Source: Candidatus Aenigmatarchaeota archaeon
GTDB taxonomy: Archaea; Aenigmatarchaeota; Aenigmatarchaeia; Aenigmatarchaeales; JACQIB01
NCBI GenBank assembly: GCA_046760225.1
Contig: JBHIDR010000021.1
Coordinates: forward strand, 1 to 13,638
Reading direction: 5' to 3'
Length of the DNA stretch: 13,638 bases
Below the pieces are notes generated by a model. It was given only the letters and a program-made list of their open reading frames with translations, was not told the DNA's origin and did no database searches. A program made the position numbers and the translations under genes. Positions 1 through 9,804 of the stretch are shown in pieces (position 1 is the first letter of the stretch; every line of letters begins with the position of its first letter).

Positions 1-867
1 TACTCCAACGCAACTGCAGAAAGTAACGGTGGAGAAGGAGTATATGTGTTCTACGAGGACACAGACAACAAGGTGCAGTATGACTCAGTGACAGATGGAA
101 CTGCAAACGACAACTTTGCTGACGTAACATACCAGGACGTGACACTTGACCTTGAGTGGGCAAACGTCACAGCAGCTGGAGGAGTCGAGCTCTTCGTGAA
201 CGAAGACGGAATGACCCTGACAGGCACAACAGCAGGAAACTACTCAATGGACATAAAGTTCAGTGGCAATGCAATTGACGGACTAGGAACAAACAAGAAC
301 AAGGAAGATGGAGAAGACCTATCTGTTTATGGCACAGAAGTAGGAACCAGGGAAGAGAGTGTCCTGACGCACATTGGTGCTGTCCTAGTGACACCAAAGT
401 CGAACACTGCTTCAGACAAGGTCGTAATCGATGTGCCGTCAGTGCAGGTCAAGGGAATCCTGACTGTTGGTCCAGTTGGTGAAGTAGCAGCAGGAGAAGA
501 GGTAACATACACAGAAGCAATACCAATAACATCGAGCGTTGCTGCACTTGACACCGAGGTCGACAAGACAGCATCTGACCTGATACTGGTCGGAGGTCCT
601 TGTGCAAACGACTTGGTCGAAGAACTTGCTCAGGCAGGCAAGTTCCCATACACATGCGACACATGGCCAACTGACAAGTTCGCAGTTGTCTCTGTGATAG
701 CAGACGCATTCACAACAGGTAAGACCGCGGTTGTGATTGCAGGAACAACAAGAACCGAGACAAACATGGGAACAGATGCTGTACAGCAGGGTCTGCTTGA
801 TGGAAGGACTGAGACACAGGTCAAGATAACAAGTCTGACCACAGCAGGAGTAACAGAATTGGTGTAA
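1..867 (+). CDS. S-layer protein, C-terminal part (5'-truncated by the window), with an S_layer_C-like terminal domain
   Basis: Frame 1 is open from base 1 (YSNATAESNGG...) to TAA 865-867, so GTG46 is internal. The protein is D/E/T/G/V-rich with N-glycosylation sequons NAT, NVT and NYS. Its C-terminal PITSSVAALDTEV...DLILVGGPCANDLV...AVVIAGTTRTET matches the archaeal S-layer C-terminal signature (LILVGGPxAN ... VxVAGxxxxxT). Strong codon bias (ACA, GCA, GAC, AAC, GGA) suggests high expression. Confidence 0.85.
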   Translation, partial: YSNATAESNGGEGVYVFYEDTDNKVQYDSVTDGTANDNFADVTYQDVTLDLEWANVTAAGGVELFVNEDGMTLTGTTAGNYSMDIKFSGNAIDGLGTNKNKEDGEDLSVYGTEVGTREESVLTHIGAVLVTPKSNTASDKVVIDVPSVQVKGILTVGPVGEVAAGEEVTYTEAIPITSSVAALDTEVDKTASDLILVGGPCANDLVEELAQAGKFPYTCDTWPTDKFAVVSVIADAFTTGKTAVVIAGTTRTETNMGTDAVQQGLLDGRTETQVKITSLTTAGVTELV

Positions 868-1504: not shown

Positions 1505-2161
1505 ATGAGAATAACAATAACAGATGTACTCATAGTCTTGCTGATAGTGGTATTTGTTTATTTTTCCCTGACAGCACCAAGGTATTTCCAGGTCAAGGGC
1601 AATGAGCTTTTCGGTGCAGTAATGACCTACAAGACACTTGTTGGCAGGGGATATGGGGCAGATGCTGAAATTTCAGGCATTGGTTCTGGATTTGATTTGC
1701 AGAGCATAGAGGGAATTGTAATTGACGCAACATCAACCAGGATGTACATATGGGACAGCAACAGGGTCCATGTTGTTTTCCAGAAGGATGAAAAGAACCC
1801 ACTTGCACATGGCTCAGAGCCACAATCACCCTATATAACCTCAAGCATAATAACACTCAGGCCAACTCAGTCCTATTCACTGGAAGAAACAGGCTGTGAA
1901 GGTGCTGAATTTGTGAGCCAGACATTGTATATTGAGCTTGACAAGGAGACTGACAGCATAGTCTGTGATTATATTTCCAAGAAGTTATGGGACAGGTTTG
2001 GTGGGGAAATAGGCTGCAGGGCCGATGGCAACCATGCCAGGATTAATCTGGCCTTTGCCCATGATTTCAGCTTTGGTGAAATCGAAAACACGTTTTCAGA
2101 TTTCAGATACAAGGTAGAAAGCTATCAAACCCTGTCCACTAAGTGTTTGGTGCTCAAATGA
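1505..2161 (+). CDS. Membrane-anchored hypothetical protein (N-terminal TM, probably extracytoplasmic domain)
   Basis: ATG1505 follows AAGGGGA and is preferred over TTG1490. It starts MRITITDVLIVLLIVVFVYF (one TM) and has four Cys in the C-terminal half. Its stop overlaps the next start (ATGA 2158-2161). Confidence 0.7.
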   Translation: MRITITDVLIVLLIVVFVYFSLTAPRYFQVKGNELFGAVMTYKTLVGRGYGADAEISGIGSGFDLQSIEGIVIDATSTRMYIWDSNRVHVVFQKDEKNPLAHGSEPQSPYITSSIITLRPTQSYSLEETGCEGAEFVSQTLYIELDKETDSIVCDYISKKLWDRFGGEIGCRADGNHARINLAFAHDFSFGEIENTFSDFRYKVESYQTLSTKCLVLK

Positions 2162-3378
2162 TTGGGATTCTTGCAAAGAAGGCTGCCAACCAGATAGAGA
2201 GGCTGGGAAAACTTACGAACTTGATAATAAAGAATTCAACTCAAGAAAAAAGAGCAACCAGAACAAGAAAAAAAGGAATCCGGCTGAATTCTTACCTCTT
2301 GGAAGGTATTGGCAGTTTCCTGGAGCCCTCTGTCTTCAGTGCAGGAAGGATGATGCTCTTAATCTTCCTCCTCTACGTCTTTCTGGGCGTCTTTTCTACT
2401 GTCCCCATGTTATATCCGCTTGAGCTTGCGATGGGCATGATTCTGATTTTCATTGCCATTGCAATGATACAGCTTGGCGGAAAAATGGGCAAGCTACCGA
2501 AGAGGCTTCCTTACCATGTTCCCAATTATGATTTCTGGGGAGGCATATTCCTTCTCGGGACACTCGGTTTGATTTTGAACTATCTTCAGGTCGGGACACC
2601 GCTTTTCAATCCTGACATAAGGCCCTACTATCATAACATGCTCTGGTCTGTTTCAATGATTTTCTATGTGATGGGCATGACAATGACAGCCATAAACCAT
2701 AGGAACAGAAACGTCTTTGTACTGCTTTCTCTGCTTTCCATCATACTTTCGGTCCTTTCAGGTTTCAGGACAGACTTTATAATTTTCCTTTTCCCACTAC
2801 TATTCTTTTTTTACTTCTTCAGGAAGTCAGGAAGGAGCGCATTTCTTTTGGCCCTACTTGTTGTCTCGGTCATTGCGATAATAGGTATAAAATATCTGCT
2901 GATAATTTTCGGGGGCAGTGCCCTTGGTGTTGAGCAGATATCATTTGCACGGGCCGGGTTCAGCCTTTATGTGCTATCGATATTGATTAAGAACGTAGGA
3001 ATTTTGGGCCTTACACATGGTGCTGTATGGCTGAATTCCTTTGTCCTGCAGTTCTTTGGTTTTCCTATTGCTCCAATAGGTGCAATAGTCTCCGAGATGG
3101 TAATAAACATGGCAAAGTCGCATGCCTCAACACTTGTTGGTCCCCTCTACCTTGAGTTTGGCGTTCTTGGCGTAATCATCGGTTCCCTTGTGCTTGGCTT
3201 CCTTTGCGAGCTGCCCCACAGGATATACAAGACGACCAGGAATTATTTTTTCCTTGGTCTTTACTCTATAAATCTTTCAATTCTTCTGGTCTGGGTTGAG
3301 ACCGGTATTGTGCAATACTATCTGGCATTTTTGTTCTTTGTAATAGGGTTTTGGTGTTTGCAATGGCTAAGAAGATGA
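2158..3378 (+). CDS. Oligosaccharide repeat unit polymerase (Wzy-like, PF01901-type), paralog 1
   Basis: Polytopic membrane protein with roughly 10-11 hydrophobic segments. Motifs LSGFRT and STLVGPLYLEFGVLG are typical of the archaeal O-antigen-polymerase-like family. Start placed at the ATGA overlap rather than GTG2143. Confidence 0.75.
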   Translation: MIGILAKKAANQIERLGKLTNLIIKNSTQEKRATRTRKKGIRLNSYLLEGIGSFLEPSVFSAGRMMLLIFLLYVFLGVFSTVPMLYPLELAMGMILIFIAIAMIQLGGKMGKLPKRLPYHVPNYDFWGGIFLLGTLGLILNYLQVGTPLFNPDIRPYYHNMLWSVSMIFYVMGMTMTAINHRNRNVFVLLSLLSIILSVLSGFRTDFIIFLFPLLFFFYFFRKSGRSAFLLALLVVSVIAIIGIKYLLIIFGGSALGVEQISFARAGFSLYVLSILIKNVGILGLTHGAVWLNSFVLQFFGFPIAPIGAIVSEMVINMAKSHASTLVGPLYLEFGVLGVIIGSLVLGFLCELPHRIYKTTRNYFFLGLYSINLSILLVWVETGIVQYYLAFLFFVIGFWCLQWLRR

Positions 3379-4451
3379 GCATTTGTTTGCTTTCGCGTTA
3401 TCCTCCATTGAAAGGGGGCGTATCAGTACATGTACAGGCCTTGGTAAAGGGCCTGAAAGAAAAGGGTCATGATATCACCCTTATAACCTATGGGAAGCTG
3501 AAAAGGAAGGAGAGAGGAACAAGGATAATCGAAGTCCCGATGATAAATTTGTTCTTCCTCCGCGGTCTTGTTTACCTTATCGGTGCAATCCTTGCGCTGC
3601 GTAAAGCAAGGGAGAAAATAGATATAATACATGCACATCCCCTGCATCCTGCAGGCACAGCTGCTGTGATGTTCAAGACATTCAGCAAGGTGCCTGTTGT
3701 TGTAACCTCTCATGGCTCGGACCTTGCAAAGTGGTCAAAGGTGCCATTAGGAAAGGCTTTCTTTTCCAGAATCGCAAATTCATCAGACAAGGTGATTTGT
3801 GTTAGTGATGCTCTTGCAAGGCGCGCAAAGGATATTGGCATAAAAAGAAAAAAGATAATGGTGGTCCCCAACGGCATAGACGTTCCCCATAAAATTAGGA
3901 AGGCAAGCAAGATTCGGCTCAGGCAGCAGCTGAGACTTCCGGAAAAAAAGAAAACAGTTCTCTTTGTTGGAATGATGGAAGATATAAAGAACCCGCAGGA
4001 ACTTCTTGAAGTTGCAAAGCACCTGAAGGATTATCTGTTTGTGTTTGTAGGTGGAGGAAGTCTAGAGAGGCAAATGAGGCAGTACGCAATAACAAACAAG
4101 CTGGGCAATGTGAGATTCACAGGCATGAAAGACCATGAAACCGCGCTGAAATACATCCGCGCTGCTGACATACTTGCAGTACCTTCAAAATTTGAGGGCT
4201 TTGGTATTGTTGCGCTGGAAGGCATGATGCTGGGAACCGCTGTTGTTGCAAAGCCAGCAGGAGCGCTTAAAAACCTCCTTGCCAGGGAGTCGTTGACAAA
4301 AAATTTGAAATCGAGAATCGTACAAGTGATGGAAAGCAAGAGACTGAGGAACAAAATAATAAGGAAAAACAGCAAAATTGCTGAAAAGTTTAATGAAAAT
4401 ACAATGGTAGATGAGATTGAAAGAATATATCAAACAGTTAGTAAGACCTGA
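3363..4451 (+). CDS. Glycosyltransferase family 4 (GT-B, retaining)
   Basis: Motifs YPPLKGGVSVHV, DIIHAH, VVTSHGSD, VVPNGID, LFVG and EGFGIVALE (E-x7-E). ATG3363 follows GGTG; ATG3375 (ATGA overlap) is an alternative. Confidence 0.92.
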   Translation: MAKKMSICLLSRYPPLKGGVSVHVQALVKGLKEKGHDITLITYGKLKRKERGTRIIEVPMINLFFLRGLVYLIGAILALRKAREKIDIIHAHPLHPAGTAAVMFKTFSKVPVVVTSHGSDLAKWSKVPLGKAFFSRIANSSDKVICVSDALARRAKDIGIKRKKIMVVPNGIDVPHKIRKASKIRLRQQLRLPEKKKTVLFVGMMEDIKNPQELLEVAKHLKDYLFVFVGGGSLERQMRQYAITNKLGNVRFTGMKDHETALKYIRAADILAVPSKFEGFGIVALEGMMLGTAVVAKPAGALKNLLARESLTKNLKSRIVQVMESKRLRNKIIRKNSKIAEKFNENTMVDEIERIYQTVSKT

Positions 4452-5616
4452 GGTATTTGTTTTACTTTCCTTGCTTTTTCTCCTTGCAGGAACTTACGTA
4501 ATTTATAATCCATATTTTCTATCAGTGAACCCGAACCTTTCCTTTTCTACTCTCTCCTTGTTTGTGTGGCTTTTCGCTCTCGGCTGCTTCCTCTTAGGTA
4601 TTAAGTACAAGGAATTGTTGTTCAAACTGAAACATCTTCCAGCAGCAATTATATTTTTATTAGCTTCACTTTCAATAAGCTTTTTGTACAGCCTACATCC
4701 CATAGTTGCACTACTCTTTGCTATTTCTGTCTTTGCAGTATCTTACTGTGTTTTGGAGTTCAGGTGGAATTTTCTTTACCTCTTTGCTTTAGGTACATTG
4801 GCTGTCCTGATCAATTTCTTGATTTTCGGTATACCCCTTCTGGATATACAGATTCATGTAGCCTCCTCAATGGCATGGAAGGGTTTATCTGATTTTGTAA
4901 ATCCTTTGTTCATTTTCGGTATCTATGCGATGCTTTATTCTGCAGTACGGCTTTATGGAGAAGGGAGGGTGAAAACTCTTTATGCCAGGAGCATGTTCCT
5001 GGTCCTTATTGTTCTTGCAGCCTTCTCATCGTTCAGGGTTTATGTGGCAATAGCATTTCTGGTCATGCTATTTATGGAAATGAAACAAAAGAAAGCAAAG
5101 GAAAATAGAAACACCTATGTCTTTCTTTCAGCCATGCTTGTTGCGGTCTTGGTTTTCTTTCTCTTGGTGGGGCACACTCTGGAGGTAGTCAAGAACAACG
5201 AGATAGGCGGTCCTATAGAGGTTGCACAATACAGGTTCGGTTTCTCTCTGCATGTTTTTGATGATATAGTAAAAAAGGCGTTTCCGTTCGGCCATGCCTT
5301 TGGGAGCACCTATATGTCTGAAAGCGGGATTGGCATCATGGTTTGTCAGGTGCTTTATGGGTGCAGTTCAAAGCTCACATCAACTGCTTTTGGACAGGCG
5401 ATGCTGGATTTCGGCTTGCTGGGAATCTTTCTCATGGCCTTTTTCCTTGCAGCTGTTCTGGGAAAGCTTTATGAGAGGGACTACCCTCTTTATACAATAG
5501 GAATTGCACATGCCATTGTTGCAATCGAAATAGGAATAAACATATTTTTCCTTTTGTTGTTCGCAATACTTTATTTGAGGCTGGTGGGATGGAATCCATT
5601 AAAAAGGCAGGACTGA
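4411..5616 (+). CDS. Oligosaccharide repeat unit polymerase (Wzy-like, PF01901-type), paralog 2; could be a ligase
   Basis: Polytopic membrane protein with GIPL, SSFRVY, YRFGFSL and LTSTAFGQAMLDFGLLG. These parallel GTPL, SGFRTD, ARAGFSL and ASTLVGPLYLEFGVLG in paralog 1. Confidence 0.7.
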   Translation: MRLKEYIKQLVRPEVFVLLSLLFLLAGTYVIYNPYFLSVNPNLSFSTLSLFVWLFALGCFLLGIKYKELLFKLKHLPAAIIFLLASLSISFLYSLHPIVALLFAISVFAVSYCVLEFRWNFLYLFALGTLAVLINFLIFGIPLLDIQIHVASSMAWKGLSDFVNPLFIFGIYAMLYSAVRLYGEGRVKTLYARSMFLVLIVLAAFSSFRVYVAIAFLVMLFMEMKQKKAKENRNTYVFLSAMLVAVLVFFLLVGHTLEVVKNNEIGGPIEVAQYRFGFSLHVFDDIVKKAFPFGHAFGSTYMSESGIGIMVCQVLYGCSSKLTSTAFGQAMLDFGLLGIFLMAFFLAAVLGKLYERDYPLYTIGIAHAIVAIEIGINIFFLLLFAILYLRLVGWNPLKRQD

Positions 5617-6830
5617 TTTTGCTTGCCGGACTTATATTCTCCCGTTTAGGCGGGACCCTGTTCAAGTTCATTGCAATCTACCATCTGACGCCGCTCGAGT
5701 ATGGAAAGCTTGCGCTCTTCCTCATAATGTTCAACTGGCTTCTCTTGATTGCTACCTTCAATACCACATTAGGTCTGGCAAAGTTCGTTGCAGAAAAGAG
5801 GAGCAAAAAGGAACTGCTTTATGGTTCAGCCCTCCTTGGCTCGACAATAATATCGCTTTTCATTTCAGGACTGTTGATTCTTTTTTCCAACCAGATTTCA
5901 TTGTTTATAGGCCTGGGCAGCATCCCCATAATATTGTTTTTGGCTGCTGTACTGCCGTTTGCAGTGGTATACAACATAACAATATTCTATTTCAGGGGCC
6001 TCTACAGAATGAAGGCCTCAACACTCTCTGATGTCGCGCTTTCAGCAGCAAAGGTAATTCTTTTAATATTCCTTTTTTATGTCGGTTACAACTATCCGCC
6101 TTACTTTGCTTTCCTTATAGCACACATGCTTATTGACCTTGTTTTAATCTTCAAGGGAAAGCTTCCGAAAAGAATTGCTTCAATCAACATGATAAAGATC
6201 AAAAAAGGGCTCATAAACTACAGAATGCTGCTCATTTATTCCTTTCCTATATTCATTGCAGAAATAACAAGATTCTTAGGGCTTGGAATTGACAGGTTCT
6301 TCCTTGCAAAATTTTTCACAACATCTGCAACAGGGATATATGACTTAGGTATATCGTTATGCATAGGATATCTTGTCATAGCCAATTCCTATGCGAATGC
6401 ACTGCTTCCTGTTGCAAGCAGGAACCATAGAAACGTTTCACGGCTCAAAACAAGTCTTTTCAAGTCAACAGGATACGTTGTAGTGCTTTATGTCCTTTAC
6501 ACAATGGCCATTCTTTTCTTCATCGAGCCCCTGGTCAACCTGATAAACCCACTCTATATTGAGGTCACGACATTTGTATTGCCGCTGATGGTTGTTTACG
6601 CCTTAATTGGCTTTCTTTCGCTGCTGACCCACTTCGCAAGTGCCATTGCCTTGCAGAAATACGCCGCATATGCATCAGCGGTGTTCCTTATTCTTGCCTT
6701 TACGTTAAACTTTTATTTGGTGCCTGAGCTAAAGTATTTAGGAGCAGTTGAAGCTCTGCTGGCCTCATCCCTGGCTTCCTTAGTATTGCTCATGTTGATG
6801 ATTTGGAGGGGGTTAAAATCAAGAAGATAA
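5589..6830 (+). CDS. Wzx-like oligosaccharide flippase (MOP/polysaccharide biosynthesis family)
   Basis: About 12 TM segments. Motifs LTPLEYG, LAKFVAE, FRGLYRMK, YSFP, IDRFFLAKF..TGIY, NALLP and LNFYLVP. Confidence 0.85.
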   Translation: MESIKKAGLILLAGLIFSRLGGTLFKFIAIYHLTPLEYGKLALFLIMFNWLLLIATFNTTLGLAKFVAEKRSKKELLYGSALLGSTIISLFISGLLILFSNQISLFIGLGSIPIILFLAAVLPFAVVYNITIFYFRGLYRMKASTLSDVALSAAKVILLIFLFYVGYNYPPYFAFLIAHMLIDLVLIFKGKLPKRIASINMIKIKKGLINYRMLLIYSFPIFIAEITRFLGLGIDRFFLAKFFTTSATGIYDLGISLCIGYLVIANSYANALLPVASRNHRNVSRLKTSLFKSTGYVVVLYVLYTMAILFFIEPLVNLINPLYIEVTTFVLPLMVVYALIGFLSLLTHFASAIALQKYAAYASAVFLILAFTLNFYLVPELKYLGAVEALLASSLASLVLLMLMIWRGLKSRR

Positions 6831-7717
6831 TAATTTTCATGGCACTAGTGTTTTTATGTTCACCTGCATATGCAGCTGAATCCTACGATCTTATCGTGGT
6901 AAGGGCTGACATACCAACAGAATATGTTGTTGCATCGGTTTATGCAAACTCAAAGAACATACCTGTCGTGCTTGTAAGTCCGGATGAGATATCAGAAAGC
7001 ATTTATGAAGAACTTCAGGGGTATGTTGCATCAGGCTATACAAGCCTTCTGCTTGTTGGTGGAAACGAGGCAATAGCGTTTGAGGTGGAAAAAACATTGA
7101 ACAACATGGGATTTAATGTCCGCAGGCTGTGGGACTGGAACAGGGAAGGCACAGCAGCCAGGGTTGCGGTTGAGCTCTGGGAAGAAAGCAAATATGTTGT
7201 TCTTGTCAACGGTGCCAATTACGACAATCTTCTGGCTGCGCAGAGGTTTGCAATGAAAAACAACATACCTGTCCTCTATACCATTGATGGGACTGTCCCT
7301 GAAGAGACAAGGACTGCAATGGAAAAGATCGGTGCTAGAAAGGCCTTTCTTTTTGAAACAGTGAAAGAAGATATGGGCATCGAGACAGAACTAATCAGTC
7401 CAGCTTCTTCTGACATAGAAAAGAAAGTGACCGAATCAGAATTTAGTTGGGTACTTTTTGCAATATTTGCCTTCGCGCTTGTTGCTGTCATCTTTATATC
7501 AAAAGTCAAGCTGCCCTCAAGCATACTTACAAAGGAAGAGAGAAAGATAATCTATGCTGTTAAAAGGAGAGCAGTGAAACAGAACGAGCTTCCTGGCATA
7601 ACAGGTTTTTCCAAGCCCAAGGTCTCAAGGCTTGTCCAGAACCTTGAGAAAAGAGGTCTTGTTTCTAGAAAGAAAATAAAGAAGACCTATCTTGTGGAGA
7701 GCAAGACCAAGATATAA
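6803..7717 (+). CDS. Cell-wall-binding repeat 2 (CWB2) domain / transmembrane helix / winged-HTH fusion protein
   Basis: Signal peptide KKIIIFMALVFLCSPAYA|AE. Two CWB2-like repeats (ASVYANSKNIPVVLV..LLVGGNEAI..RLWDWNREGTA; AAQRFAMKNNIPVLYT). TM segment FSWVLFAIFAFALVAVIFI. C-terminal LTKEERKII..QNEL..TGFSKPKVSRLVQNLEKRGLV wHTH. Start uncertain (TTG6803 or ATC6818). Confidence 0.78.
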   Translation: MEGVKIKKIIIFMALVFLCSPAYAAESYDLIVVRADIPTEYVVASVYANSKNIPVVLVSPDEISESIYEELQGYVASGYTSLLLVGGNEAIAFEVEKTLNNMGFNVRRLWDWNREGTAARVAVELWEESKYVVLVNGANYDNLLAAQRFAMKNNIPVLYTIDGTVPEETRTAMEKIGARKAFLFETVKEDMGIETELISPASSDIEKKVTESEFSWVLFAIFAFALVAVIFISKVKLPSSILTKEERKIIYAVKRRAVKQNELPGITGFSKPKVSRLVQNLEKRGLVSRKKIKKTYLVESKTKI

Positions 7718-7739
7718 CGTTTCAGATGCGTGAAACGTT
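7716..7739. repeat. Perfect 9-bp inverted repeat AACGTTTCA-N6-TGAAACGTT (operator or terminator hairpin)
   Basis: Directly visible at the end of the HTH gene, 21 bp upstream of a TATA-like box. Confidence 0.6.
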
Positions 7740-7760
7740 CCACAACGATTTCGACTGTTA

Positions 7761-7770
7761 TATTTATAGG
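7761..7770 (+). promoter_or_regulatory. TATA box of the GlcNAc-1-P transferase / DUF354 unit
   Basis: TATTTATAGG begins 32 nt before ATG7793. The same 9-mer, TATTTATAG, begins 31 nt before the pth2 ATG on the minus strand. Confidence 0.55.
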
Positions 7771-7792: not shown

Positions 7793-8722
7793 ATGTTTGA
7801 ATATTTGAAAGCAGTGCAAATCATCTTCTCCTTAGCCATTGCTCTGTTCTTCCTGACTTACCTTATAATACCAAAAGTCGCCAAGGTACTGAAAGCAAGG
7901 ATAAAGTATGGCATTGATGTCCACAAGCCACAAAGACCGAAAGTTGCAGAATGCGGGGGTATTGTTATCCTGTTTTCAATTTCAATTTTCCTCTTGTTCG
8001 CCTACATGATGCTGGGTGACATAAGGATAGTGTACGTCATGCTCGTAGCAATGATGTTCTCACTTTATGGCCTGGTTGATGACATTGTAAGGCTGGGAAA
8101 GTATCAAAAGCTCATCGTATCCTTTGCAATAGCAGCTGTTGGAACGTTTCTGTACGGGGCAACAGGCCTGTTTTTCATATTGAGCATACTTTTCCTGATA
8201 GCAGCATCAAACATATTCAATATTTTTGCAGGGCTCAACGGACTTGAAATAGGTTTTTCAACAATAATAGCATTCTTCTTCGCAGCCGCATCATTCCTGC
8301 TAAGCCAGGCAGCCCCTTTCTTTATGTCCGTCGGGATGTTTTTAGTCCTTCTTGCGTTCCTGCTGCATAATAAATACCCTGCCAGAATATTTCCTGGTGA
8401 TGTTGGAACGCTTCTGATAGGGGGCTTTTTTGCTTCCATGACACTTTACTATGGAATGTACATAGTCCTTGTTCCTCTGCTGGGCATCCATATCCTTGAC
8501 TGCCTTTTCAAGGGATGCTCTTCAGGATACTTCAGCAGCCACGAGAAAAAACCGACCAAGATTCTTGGGAACGGCATGCTTAAGCCAAGGGATGATTTCC
8601 TTTCTGTGGTAAGGATGCTGTTGAAGATAAAACCCATGACAGAAAAGATGGTAGTAAAAATATTATGGTCTTTTGAGATATTGATAGGCATAGCGACGGT
8701 TTCAATCCTGGTGATAATATGA
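7793..8722 (+). CDS. UDP-GlcNAc:polyprenyl(dolichyl)-phosphate GlcNAc-1-phosphate transferase (GPT/AglH-like; MraY/WecA superfamily)
   Basis: Motifs GIDVHKP..PKVAECGG, GLVDD, NIFNIFAGLNGLE and NKYPARIFPGDVGT; polytopic membrane protein. ATG7793 is preferred over GTG7730, which lies upstream of the TATA box and inside the inverted repeat. Confidence 0.88.
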   Translation: MFEYLKAVQIIFSLAIALFFLTYLIIPKVAKVLKARIKYGIDVHKPQRPKVAECGGIVILFSISIFLLFAYMMLGDIRIVYVMLVAMMFSLYGLVDDIVRLGKYQKLIVSFAIAAVGTFLYGATGLFFILSILFLIAASNIFNIFAGLNGLEIGFSTIIAFFFAAASFLLSQAAPFFMSVGMFLVLLAFLLHNKYPARIFPGDVGTLLIGGFFASMTLYYGMYIVLVPLLGIHILDCLFKGCSSGYFSSHEKKPTKILGNGMLKPRDDFLSVVRMLLKIKPMTEKMVVKILWSFEILIGIATVSILVII

Positions 8723-9804
8723 AGATATGGATAGATGTTACAGCTCCTCCGCATGTGACCTTTTTCAGGGCAATGATGAAGAACATGAACAATATAGTTG
8801 TTACAGCAAGGGACTTCGGTCAGGTAAAGGAATCGCTTGACAGATACGGTGTCAAATATGCTCTTATTGGTAAGCATGGTGGAAGAGGCAGGATGGGAAA
8901 GTTGGTAAAGAGCTCTGAAAGGATAATGGAGCTTGCGAAGTTTGTTGAGAAGGAAAAGCCAGACATAGGCTTTTTCAAGCACGGCATTGAAGGAGCAAGA
9001 GTATGTTATGGTCTTGGCGTGCCTTGTGTAAACCTCATAGATCATGATAGCGCAACAATACAGAACAGGCTGATGATGCCTATTTCAGATGTTATTGTGG
9101 TGCCTTCCTTTGTTTTTCCAGGATACTTGAAGCAGTTCGGGCCAAGGAAGATAAGGCAGTTCTTCGGCGTTTCTGACTATACTCATTTCATAGACTTCAG
9201 GCCTTCAAAGGACGTTCTGAAGCAGCTCAATCTCTCTGGGAACAAGCCCATCATAGTCACGAGGGCAGAGCCCTATCTTTCCTCACATGTGTTCCGCAAG
9301 AGCAAGCTTTACAATGTTCTCGCAGAGATTTTGGACAACATTGATGCACAGATAGTTTTCGTGCCAAGGAACAAGGTTGACAGGCAGCAGTTCTCAAAAC
9401 TGGGTGTGACCATTCCAGAAAAGGAAATAGATGTCTTGAGCCTTTACTGGCATACGAACCTCATGCTTGGTGCAGGATGCTGCATGAACAGGGAGGCCGC
9501 TCTTGCCGGCTGCCCCACAATATCAATGTATCCCGACGAGCTTCCTGCAATGGACAAGTTCATGATAGAGCGGGGCATGATGAAGTTCACAACAGATTCA
9601 AGAAAGGCGCTGAAATGGGGGCTTGACATAATATTGAACGGATGGGAGGATACGAACGGAAAATTAATAAACAAGATGGAAAATCCCTACCAAGTGATGT
9701 TCGAGGAAGCTGAGAAGCTCACTGGCAAGAAGGTCACTGTCCCACCATCACTTTATTCAGCACCACTGTTGCATAGGCCCCTGAAGGCAGAGCAAAGGAT
9801 ATAA
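8719..9804 (+). CDS. DUF354 family protein (predicted GT-B glycosyltransferase)
   Basis: Motifs MKIWIDVTAPPHVTFF, VTARD, IGKHGG, ARVCYGLGVP and MNREAALAGCPTISMYP. ATGA overlap with the upstream gene. Confidence 0.88.
   Translation: MKIWIDVTAPPHVTFFRAMMKNMNNIVVTARDFGQVKESLDRYGVKYALIGKHGGRGRMGKLVKSSERIMELAKFVEKEKPDIGFFKHGIEGARVCYGLGVPCVNLIDHDSATIQNRLMMPISDVIVVPSFVFPGYLKQFGPRKIRQFFGVSDYTHFIDFRPSKDVLKQLNLSGNKPIIVTRAEPYLSSHVFRKSKLYNVLAEILDNIDAQIVFVPRNKVDRQQFSKLGVTIPEKEIDVLSLYWHTNLMLGAGCCMNREAALAGCPTISMYPDELPAMDKFMIERGMMKFTTDSRKALKWGLDIILNGWEDTNGKLINKMENPYQVMFEEAEKLTGKKVTVPPSLYSAPLLHRPLKAEQRI

Follow-up and report, generated by a model that had tools for sequence, protein, structure and literature searches.

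A candidate single-chain, membrane-anchored regulator with a CWB2-type ectodomain and a winged helix among envelope genes of a DPANN archaeon

The window analysed here is the whole of a stretch of 13,638 nucleotides (nt) from Candidatus Aenigmatarchaeota archaeon (contig JBHIDR010000021.1). At positions 6803-7717 of its forward strand lies an open reading frame (ORF) which codes for 304 amino acids (aa), starts with TTG and stops at 7715-7717. Its product, called here the regulator, is a candidate membrane-anchored transcription factor and was compared with its relatives both as a protein and in 14 genomic loci (L001-L014), of which 13.6-21 kb were examined per genome. An initial annotation had read in this protein a signal peptide, two CWB2-like repeats, one transmembrane helix (TM) and a basic winged helix-turn-helix (HTH) domain. 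Pfam, profile matches to Clostridioides difficile proteins, AlphaFold and Foldseek agree with that reading, and the gene is laid out as follows.

6803..7717, + strand: gene of the CWB2-TM-winged HTH protein, 304 aa, TTG start, 28-nt overlap with the end of the flippase gene
6803..6874, + strand: signal peptide, residues 1-24, with a KIKK n-region, a hydrophobic core and cleavage between AYA and AE, predicted by reading the sequence
6884..7114, + strand: CWB2-type repeat 1, residues 28-104 (AlphaFold model, profile and Foldseek matches)
7115..7351, + strand: CWB2-type repeat 2, residues 105-183, which takes in the linker strand and helix (Pfam, model, profile, Foldseek)
7124-7153, + strand: linker motif RLWDWNREGT, residues 108-117, within repeat 2
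7442..7501, + strand: transmembrane helix, residues 214-233 (AlphaFold model and hydrophobicity)
7529..7696, + strand: cytoplasmic winged HTH of the DUF7343 family (MarR/ArsR-like), residues 243-298 (Pfam, model, Foldseek)

The TTG start is supported by the homologues, since their N-termini (MEGLK, METGK or MEKGK) align with the LEGVK of this ORF; the database copy of the protein begins at M13 and is 12 residues shorter. A hydrophobic N-terminal segment is present in 35 of 43 aligned full-length family members (down to 21% identity), and small residues at -3/-1, corresponding to an AxA-type cleavage site, recur across a 19-sequence alignment of relatives. The chain which follows the TM is basic (19 K+R vs 5 D+E) and, in the 41 of 43 members with a detected TM, the net charge of the 15 residues after the helix averages +2.2, against -0.3 for those before it. 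This asymmetry fits a cytoplasmic tail. Topology and structure prediction, which had been proposed as a check of the initial annotation, thus returned both this charge pattern and a predicted CWB2 fold.

Concerning the ectodomain, Pfam PF04122 (CW_binding_2) matched residues 108-169 with 36.8 bits for a cut-off of 24.9, and a profile of 19 relatives matched the CWB2 regions of C. difficile SlpA, Cwp8 and Cwp6 with E values of 5e-14 to 2e-9. The AlphaFold model has a mean predicted local distance difference test (pLDDT) score of 82.1, and of ~90 across residues 30-200, which correspond to the ectodomain. The 11 top PDB fold matches obtained by Foldseek were all C. difficile CWB2 proteins (172-210 aligned columns, E 4e-8), MarR/ArsR winged helices ranking after them. 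Alignments of this length imply that both repeats superpose at once and, in the model, the two would be arranged like two adjacent units of the three-unit CWB2 prism. In the predicted structure, residues ~30-101 and ~131-183 each form a beta-alpha-beta-alpha-beta unit, and a strand (105-109) and a helix (114-125) connect the two. The first repeat is devoid of the leading RLxGxDRYxT strand and helix, and its region in relatives corresponds to positions 19-73 of the Pfam CWB2 profile. Model and Foldseek also bear out the count of only two repeats, rather than three, made from the sequence.

The P-[ILV]-[ILV]-[LV] motif described for CWB2 repeats in PMC4973711 is fully matched by P54-VVL in repeat 1 and, save for the last position, by P156-VLY in repeat 2. 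Both prolines are invariant or nearly so among the aligned relatives. No alignment was obtained by BLASTP of repeat 1 against repeat 2, so that the assignment of the repeats rests on profile and fold evidence; this result is unsurprising because CWB2 motifs average 27% identity (PMC4973711). The segment RLWDWNREGT had been proposed as the CWB2 linker with two additional tryptophans. The profile of 19 relatives pairs RLWDWNR(Y/E)GTA with RLSGEDRYETS of SlpA, in agreement with the first part of this proposal. The additional tryptophans hold for the near clade, in which W-D-W is invariant, but not for the family as a whole, distant members reading R[IV]xGxxRxxT, which is nearer to the canonical motif.

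On the other side of the membrane, DUF7343 (Pfam PF24034) matched residues 243-298 with 29.3 bits for a cut-off of 27.6. In the model, this domain is a winged helix of ~60 residues made up of three helices and a wing of two strands, and the MarR/ArsR matches of Foldseek span the winged helix only; very short linkers flank the membrane helix. In the region of the recognition helix, the sequence is FSKPKVSR. The corresponding motif [FY]S[KR]P[KR][VI][ST]R is kept in the window and in 12 of the 13 translated loci, whereas the most distant one, L014, departs from it with LSKFKISR.

Conservation of the fusion and of its neighbourhood

In a word-index search, all 20 matches carried PF04122 and 19 of them also PF24034, the remaining one being a 167-aa entry covering 54% of the query. 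With E <= 1e-3 as threshold, an exhaustive profile search returned 20,182 proteins. Of the 150 top-ranking ones, 42 were full length (289-359 aa) and matched over one stretch only; the rest were nearly all longer and matched in at least two stretches (mostly three, as in the usual three-repeat CWB2), and three were shorter fragments. DUF7343 was detected in all 43 aligned full-length members and CWB2 in 42 of them. The same architecture underlies the automatic names given to two Atlas clusters, which have 101 and 121 members and are 100% archaeal. When the last 92 residues of the protein were used as query, 3 near relatives only were retrieved, a result uninformative on other ectodomains. The 14 loci belong to metagenome-assembled genomes titled Aenigmatarchaeota, Undinarchaeota or Naiadarchaeum, or just 'archaeon'; unconfirmed database labels assign one protein match to Asgard and make Methanobacteriota the commonest phylum in Atlas. 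The names of the family in databases are automatic as well (MarR family regulator, putative cell wall-binding protein, CWB2/DUF7343 domain-containing protein), and literature searches turned up no paper on the CWB2-TM-DUF7343 architecture, nor on DUF7343. An assembly chimera or a mis-called ORF, a doubt which the search for architecture and neighbourhood was meant to settle, has nothing in its favour and a practically negligible probability: the fusion recurs in the 43 family members, in 14 independent loci and in both Atlas clusters, by which the chimera is refuted.

The neighbouring genes which matter for the interpretation are the following.

1..867, + strand: S-layer protein gene, 3' part (S_layer_C / S_layer_MJ, Pfam), its promoter being outside the window
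5589..6830, + strand: Wzx-type flippase (Polysacc_synt, Pfam)
7793..8722, + strand: Glycos_transf_4, initiating phosphosugar transferase of the AglH/WecA type (Pfam), with ATG 7793 as probable start
8719..9804, + strand: DUF354 protein (Pfam), predicted GT-B-type fold

The order in the window is the 3' end of the S-layer gene, two ORFs without family match, a PF01901 gene, a glycosyltransferase family 4 (GT4) gene, a second PF01901 gene, the flippase, the regulator, Glycos_transf_4, DUF354 and then unrelated housekeeping genes. The regulator gene was therefore rightly placed, in the initial annotation, between the flippase and the initiating transferase, and it is probably co-transcribed with the flippase gene. 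The Glycos_transf_4 and DUF354 genes are directly downstream of the regulator in the window and in the 13 assessable loci out of 13 (the L006 sequence stops at the regulator gene), the order of the pair being swapped in L012-L014. On the upstream side, the flippase gene adjoins the regulator in 9 of the 13 loci with upstream sequence, and a GT4 gene takes its place in L012 and L013. In 8 loci, the gene after DUF354 is an S_layer_C gene read from the opposite strand. In the window and in the neighbourhoods of the relatives, no second HTH protein was detected, an Alba protein in L012 being the only other match to a nucleic-acid-binding family; no kinase or receiver domain was found in the regulator or in its neighbours in the window and the relatives' loci.

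The model of the DUF354 protein (pLDDT 88.5) has the UDP-GlcNAc 2-epimerases WecB, MnaA and NeuC as closest folds, with TM-scores of ~0.6-0.7, and a sequence search with this protein returned no solved relative. In PMC4520260, DUF354 is predicted to be a glycosyltransferase with poorly conserved catalytic residues.

In two loci (L005 5756-7159 and L009 9509-10933), the regulator ORF extends upstream to 467-474 aa and the flippase ORF is apparently broken; these extended ORFs could be frameshifts, assembly errors or over-called starts.

A palindrome-like element at the downstream and S-layer promoters

The features of the two promoter types are given below.

7716..7754, no strand assigned: operator-like element in three copies, AACGTTTCA at 7716-7724, TGAAACGTTCCA at 7731-7742 and CAACGATTTCGA at 7743-7754
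7760..7768, + strand: TATA box ATATTTATA of the downstream operon, 30 nt before ATG 7793
S-layer promoters of relatives, - strand: L003 15509, L004 10765, L005 11946, L007 15538, L008 15439, L009 15567, L010 15856

In relatives, TATTTATAT is located 32-33 nt ahead of the corresponding ATG. Such a spacing between TATA box and ATG suggests a leaderless or near-leaderless transcript, and the Glycos_transf_4 gene should accordingly start at ATG 7793, probably, and not at the in-frame GTG 7730. Directly upstream of the TATA region of this Glycos_transf_4/DUF354 promoter, an element TG(A/C)AA(C/T)GTTTC was highlighted. This conserved, palindrome-like element is of the TGAAACGTTTCA type, and GAAACGTTTC is a perfect palindrome. 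The inverted repeat previously annotated at 7716-7739 is real: it is made up of the copies AACGTTTCA and TGAAACGTTCCA together, with a 9-bp stem and a 6-nt loop, and forms part of the conserved element.

In 232,066 nt, 22 sites match GAAACGTTTC with at most one mismatch, the mean over 100 shuffles being 6.9 +/- 2.4; 8 of these 22 sites are found within 200 nt past the stop codon of the regulator, six of them at exactly +104. In the window, the TGAAACGTTTCA 12-mer with at most two mismatches is present 5 times for 0.85 expected, a number reached in none of 200 shuffles. The distance from the element to the TATA box is fixed in the promoter alignment of the relatives. The distant loci L012-L014 display, at the corresponding place, direct repeats of TGAAA(A/T)CGT or TTGCAACTG.

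The same core was found at the S-layer gene promoters of seven relatives (that of L011 was not located), in which AACTGTTTCA lies 7-8 bases upstream of ACCTTTATATA and a conserved distal TTTGGAACAATT block lies ~95 nt further upstream. The S-layer genes of these relatives have a long leader (~80-90 nt) ending in a GGAGG ribosome-binding site. As a control, the 61 non-coding TTTATA[TA] sites of the loci were scored for GTT[TC]C at -22 to -5. This core was present at 16 of the 61 sites: 8 downstream-operon promoters, 7 S-layer promoters and 1 site which is the distal block read on its opposite strand. The 45 other non-coding TTTATA[TA] sites were all without it. For the distal block, the degenerate pattern GGAA[CT][AG][AT]T, with 86 matches, does not discriminate. 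In the upstream regions of the other window genes, and in those of the PMT_2-like genes of relatives, no copy of the element was seen, and 1467-1483, which had been put forward as a second binding site, is a TATA-like stretch without a copy of the element.

In L003-L011, a second block, (C/G)GGAATGATA(A/G)GAAA(C/T)G(A/T)TA, is located ~30-60 nt past the regulator stop, upstream of the proximal element, and contains an inverted copy of the half-site; a degenerate pattern for this block proved too unspecific.

An RNA hairpin or terminator at 7716-7739 was considered and rejected. Its folding energy is -9.7 kcal/mol (z -2.27), a value equalled by 6 of 200 shuffled sequences, and conservation as a hairpin is contradicted by L001, where only one palindrome is present. 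The segment is not succeeded by a run of T, and no Rfam or tRNA match was obtained in the window.

Proposed function and rival explanations

On the basis of these sequence comparisons, we consider it slightly better than evenly probable that the protein is a single-chain, membrane-anchored transcription factor for envelope genes in this DPANN (Aenigmatarchaeota-like) archaeon. With such a regulator, a tiny archaeon could probably tune the genes of its surface coat in response to the condition of the envelope. After cleavage of the signal peptide, the two CWB2-type repeats would be exposed at the outer face of the membrane; one helix would cross it, and the small basic winged helix would be held on the inner side, ~10 residues from the membrane. 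Dimerised, or in a higher oligomer, by way of the membrane and outer parts, the winged helix would bind TGAAACGTTTCA-type sites, which would abut the B recognition element (BRE) and TATA box of the promoter driving the Glycos_transf_4 initiating transferase and the DUF354 enzyme. The like site in the S-layer gene promoter of relatives would also be a target. The outer domain would report the envelope state, its likeliest signal being occupancy by the glycan of the adjacent Wzx/Wzy-type genes (polymer or lipid-linked precursor), and the start of glycan assembly and the supply of S-layer protein could in this way be matched to demand. A product or intermediate of the Wzx/Wzy-type pathway is favoured as ligand because of the role of CWB2 in C. 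difficile and because the tether is short. In archaeal promoters a site just upstream of the BRE suggests activation, and the position of the element would point to this sense of control. We infer, rather than observe, that the regulator binds the element, recognises a ligand, oligomerises, and activates or represses. It is possible, though doubtful, that the CWB2 pair is an input domain which reads, at the outer face, either how much flipped lipid-linked glycan is available or how far the S-layer is underlain by glycan, that the winged helix directly controls the glycan-initiation and S-layer promoters, and that these loci are held at the membrane where their products insert.

Several observations weigh against a regulatory function of this kind. 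Three tandem repeats in a pseudo-threefold prism are the CWB2 arrangement in PMC4973711 and PMC8881574, and two only are found here by model and Foldseek; in C. difficile, the loss of any one of the three abolishes wall anchoring (PMC4973711). SlpA is thought to bind the anionic polysaccharide II (PSII) via positive patches (PMC8881574), whereas the present outer domain is net acidic (17 K+R vs 30 D+E). The winged helix falls below the MarR thresholds (MarR_2, 24.6 for a cut-off of 27; MarR, 17.4 for 24.6); in the model, it is not flanked by MarR-type dimerisation helices and begins ~10 residues past the membrane helix. With regard to the DNA element, each of the copies in the window is 1-2 bases off the perfect palindrome, and the promoters of the window, L001 and L002 end in TATAG and thus fall outside the TTTATA[TA] control. 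No copy was seen upstream of the polymerase or flippase genes. An exact GAAACGTTTC is present inside the flippase coding sequence (window 6430-6439 and L001 2379-2388), at -1287 from the regulator stop in both cases and with no TATA box following it; this is probably coding conservation, but it may be an internal site. Finally, an unlinked factor could bind the element. Since no copy was seen ahead of the polymerase and flippase genes, any feedback would be confined to the initiating pair, joined in relatives by the S-layer gene, and would not bear on the whole cluster. Of the initial annotation, a transcriptional role directed at glycan-synthesis genes has comparative support as far as the initiating pair is concerned (the pair itself, the element at its promoter, a sole HTH protein); binding of the exported glycan, feedback by it and oligomerisation as the signal are hypotheses of that annotation.

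The protein might instead be an envelope anchor or scaffold, its CWB2 pair holding a surface glycan or glycosylated S-layer protein and its winged helix tethering the nucleoid or a partner, with no signalling. CWB2 is an anchoring module in all characterised cases (PMC8881574, PMC4973711), S-layer genes adjoin the locus in the window and 8 loci, and the very short linkers which flank the membrane helix in the model would suit an anchor. We nevertheless regard this function as unlikely, as it leaves unexplained both the strict conservation of the recognition-helix motif and the presence, beside the gene, of a conserved element which is promoter-specific and sequence-specific. The protein might also be a transcription factor with its targets elsewhere, the TGAAACGTTTCA-type element being bound by another, unlinked factor; the 13.6-21 kb seen per genome leave room for further regulators and sites. 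This is quite unlikely in view of the conservation over phylum-level distance of the sole HTH gene of the neighbourhood, and of the joint conservation of element and recognition helix.

Proteolytic release has also to be weighed, in which an inactive membrane form would be cleaved upon an envelope signal and its winged helix freed. The closeness of the winged helix to the membrane in the model and a rhomboid protease gene near the locus in 1 of 14 cases (L011) are compatible with it. We hold this to be improbable: the protease is a neighbour at that one locus only, no cleavage motif was identified in the protein, DPANN cells are small, and the co-translational insertion of the membrane or secreted products of the target genes could itself hold the DNA at the membrane. 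An accessory function in the Wzx/Wzy pathway, comparable to that of a polysaccharide co-polymerase (PCP) of the Wzz type, would make of the winged helix a protein-interaction module in the control of chain length or export. The cluster has Wzx- and Wzy-like genes and no recognisable PCP, and an uncleaved signal peptide would give a PCP-like topology. The ectodomain has, however, a CWB2 fold and not the helical fold of PCPs (Foldseek on the model), the AxA cleavage site is conserved, and neither polymerase nor flippase was found among the scanned neighbour ORFs of L012 and L013 (L014 being too short), which makes such a function very improbable.

The single-chain regulator favoured here can be compared with known systems. 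In bacterial regulators of the ToxR/CadC type, an extracytoplasmic sensor, a single membrane helix and a winged-helix DNA-binding domain are likewise united in one polypeptide, without a phosphorelay partner. The order is reversed here, with an N-terminal sensor behind a cleavable signal peptide and a C-terminal DNA-binding domain; moreover, the winged helix is DUF7343/MarR-like and not OmpR-like, the cytoplasmic linker is of ~10 residues and the host is archaeal. Judged by its sequence, the regulator would work like a ToxR-type protein but departs from that family in its defining domain order and DNA-binding fold. ArnR and ArnR1 of Sulfolobus are membrane-bound archaellum regulators with an N-terminal HTH, C-terminal membrane helices and no CWB2 ectodomain; the likeness is that of archaeal transcription factors held at the membrane. 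Other archaeal DUF7343 proteins, seen as Atlas clusters, have the same small winged helix without CWB2. These clusters are of 76-134 aa, or of 210-317 aa with no other named domain, and some are from Aenigmatarchaeota; with scores <0.9, they are leads only. As for C. difficile SlpA, Cwp6 and Cwp8 (PDB 7ACY, 5J72, 5J6Q), sequence homology, predicted fold and a P-[ILV]-[ILV]-x motif in both repeats are shared, as is a gene position beside S-layer and glycan-synthesis genes. Differences are the two repeats in place of three, the first without leading strand and helix, the linker (RLSGEDRYET there, RLWDWNREGT here) and the fusion partner, an enzyme or lattice domain there and a membrane helix with a DNA-binding domain here. 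The host here is a DPANN archaeon, for which no wall polymer is known.

To our knowledge, little is known about how archaea regulate the production of S-layers and surface glycans, and our literature searches found no paper on this regulation in DPANN archaea. The Glycos_transf_4/DUF354 synteny, the conserved promoter element and its core shared with S-layer promoters are new here. They provide a compact and testable candidate, in which a single protein is paired with a short DNA element and, in several genomes, with two target promoters. DPANN archaea cannot be grown alone; the element and the small cytoplasmic domain are open to in vitro work without culture. The occurrence of a CWB2 module outside bacteria, with two repeats and not three and fused to a DNA-binding domain, bears on ligand recognition by CWB2 and on the turning of wall-binding domains into sensors. 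If the CWB2 pair does read envelope glycan and the winged helix does control both promoters, this protein would be, among DPANN archaea, the first regulator described for the supply of S-layer and glycan, and its ectodomain the first CWB2 domain serving as a sensor.

Further features of the cluster

Two ORFs of 191 and 223 aa (890-1465 and 1490-2161), which separate the S-layer gene of the window from its first polymerase-like gene, matched nothing in Pfam or NCBIfam. At ~1470-1481, just before the TTG at 1490, there is a TATA-like AACCTATAAATA, so near to this TTG that the true start of the 1490-2161 ORF may be further downstream. The PF01901 (O_anti_polymase) genes at 2143-3378 and 4411-5616 are two paralogues in one cluster, and two are also found in L009 and L010. 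In L011, and in that locus only, the rhomboid protease gene (14467-15279, - strand) adjoins a shortened S_layer_C ORF of 456 aa. Giant proteins of 1545-1685 aa are encoded next to the S-layer gene on the - strand in L003 (15669-20306), L007 (15728-20752) and L008 (15630-20687); those of L003 and L007, the two scanned, contain TSP3 and cohesin domains, with dockerin too in L003.

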